64,000 nucleotides of DNA. It comes from Escherichia coli (lineage in GTDB: Bacteria; Pseudomonadota; Gammaproteobacteria; Enterobacterales; Enterobacteriaceae). The notes under the pieces were generated by a model. The model was given only the letters and a program-made list of their open reading frames with translations, had not been told where the DNA came from and made no database searches. Shown here piece by piece: positions 24,656 through 27,403 of this stretch. The stretch is from NCBI RefSeq assembly GCF_003334785.1, contig NZ_QOWV01000008.1. The stretch is one strand, 5' to 3'. Both the position numbers and the translations under genes were made by a program. Position 1 is the first letter of the stretch. Each line of letters starts with the position of its first letter.

Positions 24656-24913
24656 TTAGTGTTCTCTGGTATCAAATGGTCCGGGCGGGACGGGATCGTC
24701 ACCACCAGGGTGTAAAGGGTGGCATTTTAATACGCGTTTCACCGTCAACCAACTGCCTTTTATCACTCCAAACCTGCGCAATGCCTCAATTCCGTAGCTT
24801 GAACAGGTTGGAGTGAAACGACAATGCGGCCCGAGTAGCGGACTAATCAGGCGTTGATAGACCCGAATGAGGGCTATCAGGACCCGCGAGCCAGGCGACA
24901 GTGGCGGCGCCAT
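24656..24913 (-). CDS. yidD: Membrane protein insertion efficiency factor YidD
   Basis: 85-aa ORF; overlaps rnpA 3' end by 37 nt. Confidence 0.95.
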
Positions 24914-25236
24914 AATTTTTCCAACGCTTCCGAGAGAGCACGGTTATCGAGGTCGGCAACCCCTTTTTTCGCCACCACCACGAAATCCATAGCCGGGAGT
25001 TCATGTTGGCGCAGACGGAAGCTTTCACGCGTCAGACGTTTAATCCGATTGCGTTCATGGGCGCGTCGAACGTTTTTCTTGGCGACTGTAAGACCGATAC
25101 GGGGATGCCCCAGCGAATTCAGGCGGCCGAGAATGGTAATTTGCGGCGTGCCAGCCCGTTGTGGCTGCTGGAAGACGAATGTGAATTGACTGGGAGTTAA
25201 CAAGCGTAACTCCCTGGGAAATGCGAGCTTAACCAC
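24877..25236 (-). CDS. rnpA: RNase P protein component RnpA
   Basis: 119-aa basic ORF. Confidence 0.97.
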
Positions 25237-25252
25237 TCAGGGGTTAGCTTTA

Positions 25253-25405
<153 letters not shown>

Positions 25406-25781
25406 CTAAACTTGAATAAATTCAATGGCTTTATTGGATATCCGCCGAAAAATGAAACGATGGACACCGAAGCCATGGGTGATTAAAGAGGCCGGATTGT
25501 AATAATTGTACACTCCGGAGTCAATTCTCTTTCCTTATTTACCGCGCTTTTCCGCACCTTTTCGCAGGGAAAATGTACGACCTCACACCAGTGGAAACCA
25601 GCATGGCGCGCCGGGTGGAGGATTATACGGGCTGATGGGTAAAGCGCAAGGATCGTCCTGGATCTTTATTAGATCGATTAAGCCAATTTTTGTCTATGGT
25701 CATTAAATTTTCCAATATGCGGCGTAAATCGTGCCCGCCTCGCGGCAGGATCGTTTACACTTAGCGAGTTCTGGAAAGTCC

Positions 25782-25790
25782 TGTGGATAA
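25782..25790. promoter_or_regulatory. DnaA box (TTATCCACA) in dnaA promoter region
   Basis: tgtggataa is the reverse complement of the consensus; lies within a GATC cluster upstream of dnaA. Confidence 0.7.
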
Positions 25791-25999
25791 ATCGGGAAAA
25801 TCTGTGAGAAACAGAAGATCTCTTGCGCAGTTTAGGCTATGATCCGCGGTCCCGATCGTTTTGCAGGATCTTGATCGGGCATATAACCGCAGACAGCGGT
25901 TCGTGCGTCACCCTCAAGCAGGGTCTTTTCGACGTACGTCAACAATCATGAATGTTTCAGCCTTAGTCATTATCGACTTTTGTTCGAGTGGAGTCCGCC

Positions 26000-27403
26000 G
26001 TGTCACTTTCGCTTTGGCAGCAGTGTCTTGCCCGATTGCAGGATGAGTTACCAGCCACAGAATTCAGTATGTGGATACGCCCATTGCAGGCGGAACTGAG
26101 CGATAACACGCTGGCCCTGTACGCGCCAAACCGTTTTGTCCTCGATTGGGTACGGGACAAGTACCTTAATAATATCAATGGACTGCTAACCAGTTTCTGC
26201 GGAGCGGATGCCCCACAGCTGCGTTTTGAAGTCGGCACCAAACCGGTGACGCAAACGCCACAAGCGGCAGTGACGAGCAACGTCGCGGCCCCTGCACAGG
26301 TGGCGCAAACGCAGCCGCAACGTGCTGCGCCTTCTACGCGCTCAGGTTGGGATAACGTCCCGGCCCCGGCAGAACCGACCTATCGTTCTAACGTAAACGT
26401 CAAACACACGTTTGATAACTTCGTTGAAGGTAAATCTAACCAACTGGCGCGCGCGGCGGCTCGCCAGGTGGCGGATAACCCTGGCGGTGCCTATAACCCG
26501 TTGTTCCTTTATGGCGGCACGGGTCTGGGTAAAACTCACCTGCTGCATGCGGTGGGTAACGGCATTATGGCGCGCAAGCCGAATGCCAAAGTGGTTTATA
26601 TGCACTCCGAGCGCTTTGTTCAGGACATGGTTAAAGCCCTGCAAAACAACGCGATCGAAGAGTTTAAACGCTACTACCGTTCCGTAGATGCACTGCTGAT
26701 CGACGATATTCAGTTTTTTGCTAATAAAGAACGATCTCAGGAAGAGTTTTTCCACACCTTCAACGCCCTGCTGGAAGGTAATCAACAGATCATTCTCACC
26801 TCGGATCGCTATCCGAAAGAGATCAACGGCGTTGAGGATCGTTTGAAATCCCGCTTCGGTTGGGGACTGACTGTGGCGATCGAACCGCCAGAGCTGGAAA
26901 CCCGTGTGGCGATCCTGATGAAAAAGGCCGACGAAAACGACATTCGTTTGCCGGGCGAAGTGGCGTTCTTTATCGCCAAGCGTCTACGATCTAACGTACG
27001 TGAGCTGGAAGGGGCGCTGAACCGCGTCATTGCCAATGCCAACTTTACCGGACGGGCGATCACCATCGACTTCGTGCGTGAGGCGCTGCGCGACTTGCTG
27101 GCATTGCAGGAAAAACTGGTCACCATCGACAATATTCAGAAGACGGTGGCGGAGTACTACAAGATCAAAGTCGCGGATCTCCTTTCCAAGCGTCGATCCC
27201 GCTCGGTGGCGCGTCCGCGCCAGATGGCGATGGCGCTGGCGAAAGAGCTGACTAACCACAGTCTGCCGGAGATTGGCGATGCGTTTGGTGGCCGTGACCA
27301 CACGACGGTGCTTCATGCCTGCCGTAAGATCGAGCAGTTGCGTGAAGAGAGCCACGATATCAAAGAAGATTTTTCAAATTTAATCAGAACATTGTCATCG
27401 TAA
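26000..27403 (+). CDS. dnaA: Chromosomal replication initiator DnaA
   Basis: 467 aa from GTG start ([14 protein letters not shown]); AAA+ Walker [10 protein letters not shown]. Confidence 0.98.

Follow-up and report, generated by a model that had tools for sequence, protein, structure and literature searches.

The region between rpmH and dnaA in the analyzed stretch of 64,000 nucleotides (the window) is the E. coli dnaA promoter itself and not merely a sequence similar to it, as all of its testable defining features were found here. It is almost certainly the regulatory region at which E. coli dnaA is subject both to autoregulation by DnaA and to sequestration by Dam and SeqA. This reading, proposed in the earlier note, is supported by published work on DnaA autoregulation, hemimethylation, and SeqA ChIP, together with a GATC excess that is restricted to particular lineages. 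The locus identity, the site positions, the GATC excess, and the lineage-restricted conservation come from the present analysis, while DnaA binding, the kinetics of hemimethylation, SeqA occupancy, and the effects on transcription come from published experiments. The region represents a classic control point of the bacterial cell cycle, where the synthesis of the initiator is tied to the level of DnaA-ATP through autoregulation and to replication fork passage via Dam/SeqA sequestration. Knowledge of the feature dates back to 1982-1990, and the finding itself adds nothing new to the biology.

Architecture of the rpmH-dnaA intergenic region

The GATC cluster and the DnaA boxes are located between rpmH and dnaA, two genes that are transcribed divergently (Table 1). 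Downstream of dnaA comes dnaN, and rnpA, yidD, and yidC lie beyond rpmH on the other side. The 606-bp intergenic region has 100% identity to many E. coli chromosomes and is present, at 95% identity or more, in 5425 of the 5426 complete E. coli genomes, in every case on the chromosome. The peptide encoded by the small ysdD frame of the window matches exactly the MG1655 YsdD at 3884026-3884106, which is listed among the validated small proteins (PMC6001520). By virtue of this match, any MG1655 coordinate is obtained as 3909729 minus the window coordinate. In the divergent E. coli strains, the ysdD frame carries no annotation beyond hypothetical protein.

Table 1. Features of the rpmH-dnaA region and of the dnaA gene in window coordinates, with their retention in an alignment to 18 other Enterobacterales
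Feature	Position	Strand	Basis	Retained in (of 18)
rpmH (ribosomal protein L34) CDS, transcribed away from dnaA	25253-25393	-	translation of the 46-residue ORF; RefSeq annotation in identical E. coli locus	
ysdD small ORF, 26 aa, MTIDKNWLNRSNKDPGRSLRFTHQPV, containing the upstream GATC triplet	25623-25703	-	RefSeq annotation	
Upstream GATCs 1, 2, 3 (25651, 25661, 25672), spaced 10 and 11 bp, within ysdD	25651-25675	.	exact search	15, 14, 11
GATC 4 (25749), just upstream of the putative dnaAp1 -10 hexamer	25749-25752	.	exact search	5, all close E. coli relatives
Putative dnaAp1 -10 hexamer TACACT, start near 25768	25756-25761	+	most -10-like of the hexamers lying about 82 bp upstream of p2	
Four head-to-tail DnaA boxes, 10-12 bp spacing	25770-25811	-	mismatch scan	
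Weak DnaA box, 2 mismatches	25770-25778	-	mismatch scan	
DnaA box 1, TTATCCACA, perfect	25782-25790	-	mismatch scan	17 (identical)
Weak DnaA box between boxes 1 and 2, 2 mismatches, TCGGGAAAA without GATC	25792-25800	-	mismatch scan	
DnaA box 2, TTTCTCACA, 1 mismatch	25803-25811	-	mismatch scan	
dnaAp2 -35 region, AAGATC (25815-25820), with GATC 5 (25817) inside AGATCT (25816-25821)	25815-25821	+	sequence and PMC5835720	18 (GATC)
dnaAp2 -10 TATGAT, overlapping GATC 6 (25841)	25838-25843	+	sequence and PMC5835720	17
CCGCGG discriminator	25844-25849	+	sequence; follows p2 -10	
Leader GATCs 7, 8, 9 (25854, 25867, 25873; 'm3SeqA' sites), in the transcribed leader, shortly downstream of the p2 start	25854-25876	.	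exact search	8, 2, 4
dnaA CDS, GTG start	26000-27403	+	ORF list and RefSeq annotation of the identical locus	
Intragenic cluster of 15 GATCs in 679 bp	26653-27331	.	exact search; window-wide P<=0.0005	
DnaA box TTTTCCACA within the intragenic cluster	26748-26756		relaxed-consensus search	

The earlier note had placed a consensus DnaA box on the reverse strand at 25782-25790. Indeed, TGTGGATAA is read there, which corresponds to TTATCCACA on the minus strand, and this is the sole perfect copy in the 64-kb window. The mismatch scan shows that this box (box 1) belongs to an array of four, which is the arrangement of "four closely spaced boxes" proposed for the dnaA promoter (PMC5835720). Box 1 and box 2 share one orientation, with a distance of 21 bp, and directly precede the -35 element of dnaAp2 on its upstream side. 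The number of boxes was considered as a statistical argument and fails as such, with three matches to the relaxed consensus TTWTNCACA in the window versus 5.7 expected by chance. The count is thus uninformative, and the significance of box 1 rests on its position and its conservation.

The dnaAp2 promoter consists of AAGATC, a 17-bp spacer, and TATGAT, and its -35 and -10 elements each carry a GATC. This agrees with the published description of p2, in which one GATC lies in the -10 and one in the -35, with CCGCGG just upstream of +1 (PMC5835720). Autoregulation has been described as requiring a consensus DnaA box situated between dnaAp1 and dnaAp2 (PMC5835720), and with the putative dnaAp1 hexamer at its position in Table 1, box 1 would stand between the two promoters, as in the literature. 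The p2 start would fall at about 25850-25852 and the p1 start near 25768, positions that derive from the hexamers and the literature text and not from mapped coordinates. In MG1655, these putative starts would lie at about 3883877-3883879 and about 3883961, respectively. A generic sigma-70 scan called no plus-strand promoter in the region, neither p1 nor p2; as both are known non-consensus promoters, the missing call is not counted against them.

Compared with the E. coli K-12 dnaA promoter (dnaAp1/dnaAp2, boxes 1 and 2, nine GATCs), the window shows the same locus, with no difference of substance: the same nine GATCs in about 225 bp, TTATCCACA between the promoters, the GATCs of the p2 -35 and -10 elements, and the CCGCGG discriminator. 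The K-12 promoter region is reportedly the subject of work by Hansen et al. in 1982, Campbell & Kleckner in 1990, and Speck et al. in 1999.

Other elements were observed around the promoter. The sigma-70 scan did call a strong promoter-like sequence on the minus strand (TTGACT, 17 bp, TACAAT; 25496-25524; 10 of 12 matches), which is directed at rpmH about 100 bp before its start codon and probably corresponds to an rpmH promoter that is already known. The reading frames of rnpA (24877-25236, minus strand) and yidD (24656-24913, minus strand) share 37 bp (24877-24913), as in the RefSeq annotation of E. coli. An Rfam search of positions 25000-26300 at a permissive threshold returned no RNA family, so neither the intergenic region nor the leader contains a known structured RNA.

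Density of GATC sites

An exact search agrees with all six GATC positions listed in the earlier note, namely 25749, 25817, 25841, 25854, 25867, and 25873. The extent of the cluster was, on the other hand, cut short there, since three further sites are present at 25651, 25661, and 25672. The full cluster (25651-25876) comprises nine GATCs in 226 bp and is the densest stretch of that size in the window. The classical description of the dnaA promoter likewise gives nine GATCs within 225 bp (PMC5835720). The nine sites follow each other at 10, 11, 77, 68, 24, 13, 13, and 6 bp. A SeqA dimer bridges two hemimethylated GATCs provided that they are close enough, in pairs within about three helical turns (PMC2691817), and most neighboring sites of the cluster fall in this range.

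The window contains 287 GATCs, i.e., one per 223 bp. Against this background, six sites in 128 bp correspond to a 10.7-fold enrichment (0.56 expected, fixed-window Poisson P=2.7e-5). The probability of finding six in 128 bp anywhere in the window is 0.014 with an order-1 Markov model, 0.037 with an order-3 Markov model, and 0.061 with uniform placement of the 287 sites, which makes the six-site cluster on its own borderline after window-wide correction. A second stretch with six sites in 128 bp is in fact present in the window, inside dnaA. For nine sites in 226 bp, the corresponding window-wide values are 0/2000, 0.001, and 0.003, and the excess is clearly significant (P<=0.003). The comparison of the GATC density with the window background that had been suggested for this cluster therefore places it significantly above.

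A chance or compositional fluctuation without function was also considered as the origin of the cluster. Such a reading could draw on the modest window-wide values for six sites and on the second stretch of the same density. It is contradicted by the nine-site statistics and by the local composition, from which only 2.7 GATCs are expected in the 400 bp upstream of the window dnaA, where nine are observed. It is further contradicted by the recurrence of the excess in 57 independent Dam-clade loci and its absence from 34 Pseudomonadales loci (see below), and by direct experiments on the dnaA promoter (PMC5835720, Sci Adv 2024, PMC2996942). Chance is thus refuted as an explanation, and the probability that we leave to it is practically negligible.

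Over the whole 64 kb, the 287 GATCs exceed the 240+-15 obtained in dinucleotide-preserving shuffles, none of 100 shuffles reaching 287; the same whole-window count is reproduced by an order-3 Markov model.

Conservation and phylogenetic distribution

The alignment of the window with 18 other Enterobacterales (Table 1, last column) indicates that the promoter core is fixed, while the leader GATCs turn over with the local density being retained. Within closer relatives, namely five divergent E. coli strains and E. albertii, none of the nine GATCs varies.

Some variation was observed within the box array itself. In four of the five divergent E. coli strains (L122, L123, L124, and L126), a tenth GATC is present at 25773-25780, where GGATCATC replaces the GGAAAGTC of the window and K-12. 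This site is immediately upstream of box 1 and arises from a multi-base substitution within the two-mismatch box at 25770-25778; Citrobacter and Enterobacter likewise have a GATC at this position. The weak box aligned to 25792-25800 reads AAGGATCAAA in five loci from Yersinia, Acerihabitans, Pantoea, and Erwinia (L023, L050, L091, L109, and L118). This form puts a GATC between the two high-affinity boxes, where E. coli has TCGGGAAAA.

To follow the upstream GATCs over a wider range, 120 gammaproteobacterial dnaA loci were retrieved with a degenerate DNA pattern for a conserved 10-residue motif of the DnaA N-terminus, and GATCs were counted in the 400 bp upstream of each dnaA start and compared with the local Markov expectation. 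The median count is 8.5 in Enterobacterales (n=22, expectation 2.2), 6 in Vibrionales (n=11, 1.4), 6.5 in Aeromonadales (n=4, 1.8), and 4.5 in Alteromonadales sensu lato (n=20, 1.3), as compared to 1.0 in Pseudomonadales (n=34, 0.94). Taken together, the Dam-clade loci (57 loci from Enterobacterales, Vibrionales, Aeromonadales, Alteromonadales, and Orbales) have a median of 7 GATCs per 400 bp versus 1 in the 34 Pseudomonadales loci (Mann-Whitney P=1.4e-13), and at least five upstream GATCs are found in 75% of the former and 0% of the latter. The general GATC density of Pseudomonadales, 6.3 per kb, is above that of the other groups, yet their upstream count is at expectation.

The Dam-clade orders carry Dam, SeqA, and MutH, and Pseudomonadales are not known to do so. 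This lineage distribution is reportedly treated by Løbner-Olesen, Skovgaard, and Marinus in 2005. Our literature search on the phylogenetic distribution of Dam, SeqA, and MutH returned nothing directly usable, the only remark found being that oriC GATC motifs occur in taxa with a Dam gene. With the gene content taken from such established knowledge, the counts support an upstream GATC excess that is confined to lineages known to carry Dam and SeqA. The comparison cleanly re-derives an idea that was already known and is not a discovery. One unclassified gammaproteobacterial metagenome-assembled genome (L044) has 10 GATCs in the 400 bp before dnaA and 12 in the dnaA coding sequence, an Enterobacteriaceae-like pattern that suggests that this organism belongs to the Dam/SeqA clade.

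In many bacteria, including Pseudomonas, oriC is situated between rpmH and dnaA. We have also considered that the boxes and the GATC cluster are the remnant of an ancestral origin adjoining dnaA and do not primarily serve promoter control. The joint presence of DnaA boxes and dense GATCs does resemble oriC (PMC5835720). E. coli oriC, with 11 GATCs and DnaA boxes, shares with the dnaA promoter a roughly ten-fold GATC enrichment, high-affinity DnaA boxes adjoining GATCs, hemimethylation that is prolonged in a SeqA-dependent manner, and SeqA ChIP peaks of the highest rank (PMC5835720, PMC2996942). Unlike oriC, however, the dnaA promoter has neither a 13-mer array nor an AT-rich unwinding element, and it drives transcription and not replication. 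The region contains one isolated match to GATCTNTTNTTTT with two mismatches instead of a series of 13-mer unwinding repeats, and has no strongly AT-rich stretch, the minimum GC content being 0.33 over 60 bp. In addition, the elements are positioned exactly on the p2 hexamers. Finally, no GATC excess is seen in Pseudomonadales, in which the origin adjoins dnaA, and the cluster was therefore not inherited as part of an origin. On the strength of the missing 13-mer array, the missing AT-rich element, and the lack of a Pseudomonadales GATC excess, the relic was rejected as a very improbable explanation.

Autoregulation and sequestration of the dnaA promoter

The published experiments agree well with promoter control by DnaA and SeqA. 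DnaA acts on the dnaA promoter with 4-5-fold repression or derepression, for which the DnaA box is essential (PMC5835720), and mutants of box 1 and box 2 lose regulation (Sci Adv 2024). The sequence AGATCT has been described as a 6-mer box specific for DnaA-ATP that is needed for full repression (PMC8203912); it occurs 11 times in the window versus 9.4 expected, i.e., without enrichment. Autoregulation relies on the box array together with the ATP-DnaA AGATCT element rather than on a single box. The p2 promoter is also stimulated directly by Dam methylation, about 2-fold, and the dnaA region stays hemimethylated for about one-fifth of the doubling time, a period that is shortened in seqA mutants (PMC5835720). 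In SeqA ChIP-chip, the promoter region has the second-highest peak genome-wide, exceeded only by oriC (PMC2996942). SeqA represses p2 through five GATCs, and the three closely spaced GATCs downstream of the p2 start mediate SeqA repression; once these leader sites are mutated, the p2 oscillations seen in single cells differ in timing and amplitude (Sci Adv 2024).

The published mechanism agrees with everything observed here and can be outlined as follows. The high-affinity DnaA box is bracketed by p1 and, about 80 bp further downstream, by the stronger p2. At low DnaA-ATP, DnaA bound at boxes 1 and 2 activates p2. At high DnaA-ATP, the same two boxes nucleate a DnaA-ATP oligomer, which extends over weaker sites, among them the AGATCT of the p2 -35, and occludes RNA polymerase, giving rise to autoregulation. 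The nine GATCs act as Dam sites whose full methylation favors p2 activity. Passage of the fork, about a minute after initiation, leaves all nine hemimethylated, and SeqA bound to the closely spaced hemimethylated pairs then blocks both Dam and RNA polymerase for about one-fifth of a generation. As a result, less DnaA is made right after initiation.

The dnaA promoter can be compared here with other DnaA-binding regions of E. coli. Its sequestration lasts about 1/5 of the doubling time, as compared to 1/3 for oriC (PMC5835720). With the mioC promoter and datA clusters it shares closely spaced DnaA boxes that titrate DnaA and repress the adjacent promoter, but it titrates only about 3-4 DnaA molecules (PMC5835720) and, unlike them, joins its boxes with a GATC cluster responsive to fork passage.

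The physiological weight of sequestration deserves a separate comment. According to Sci Adv 2024, which cites Wilkinson 2006, initiation synchrony is unaffected when the three downstream GATCs are removed, and the same paper cites Kedar 2000 for the -10 and -35 GATCs having little effect on SeqA repression. With synchrony intact and the effect of the -10 and -35 sites small, the physiological weight of promoter sequestration is modest or redundant. Sequestration of the dnaA promoter is accordingly a modulating, partly redundant control.

The small effect of the -10 and -35 sites reported in that citation of Kedar 2000 also bears on another reading, in which the p2 GATCs are kept mainly as promoter hexamers or ATP-DnaA boxes (AGATCT) and for direct stimulation by Dam, with SeqA being secondary. 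Such constraints would complement autoregulation and sequestration. In its favor, the two best-conserved GATCs are those in the -35 (18/18) and the -10 (17/18), the former lies within a perfect AGATCT of the kind described as a DnaA-ATP box (PMC8203912), and p2 is enhanced by methylation (about 2-fold, PMC5835720). Only one of the nine cluster sites, the -35 GATC, is a perfect AGATCT, however, and the upstream triplet (25651-25672), far from p2 and kept in 11-15 of the 18 Enterobacterales, is left unexplained, as is the high GATC density before dnaA in every Dam/SeqA order despite site turnover. Moreover, SeqA occupancy and prolonged, seqA-dependent hemimethylation have been measured directly (PMC2996942, PMC5835720). 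The reading is thus partly true, in that it holds for two sites, on which promoter function and ATP-DnaA binding may impose the stronger constraint; as the principal reason for the p2 GATCs it is possible but doubtful, and control by both DnaA and SeqA is preferred.

The second cluster, located inside dnaA, is the only mildly open point of the locus. Together with the promoter sites it gives 24 GATCs over about 1.7 kb (25651-27331). It can be envisaged that the promoter and the dnaA gene body form one extended SeqA-binding domain, whose intragenic part might keep dnaA sequestered without the promoter GATCs. We consider this unlikely, but, if true, it would account for initiation synchrony surviving the deletion of the promoter GATCs. 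A search for a test of such an extended promoter and gene-body domain found none among the papers covered; a map of the GATCs around dnaA is, however, already in print (Fig. 6 of PMC5835720).

The intragenic sites are more numerous than the protein sequence and codon usage demand. The dnaA coding sequence has 15 GATCs versus 8.9+-2.1 under synonymous codon shuffling (P=0.004), with 15 of the 28 synonymously possible positions being used in the intragenic cluster. No GATC excess was found in the neighboring dnaN and yidC. The dnaA genes of Yersinia, Photorhabdus, and Morganella have 3-4 GATCs per 1.4 kb, which is no excess. The intragenic excess is confined to Enterobacteriaceae/Erwiniaceae-like genomes and is present in Escherichia, Citrobacter, Enterobacter, Klebsiella, Pantoea, and Erwinia, with 10-13 sites per 1.4 kb.
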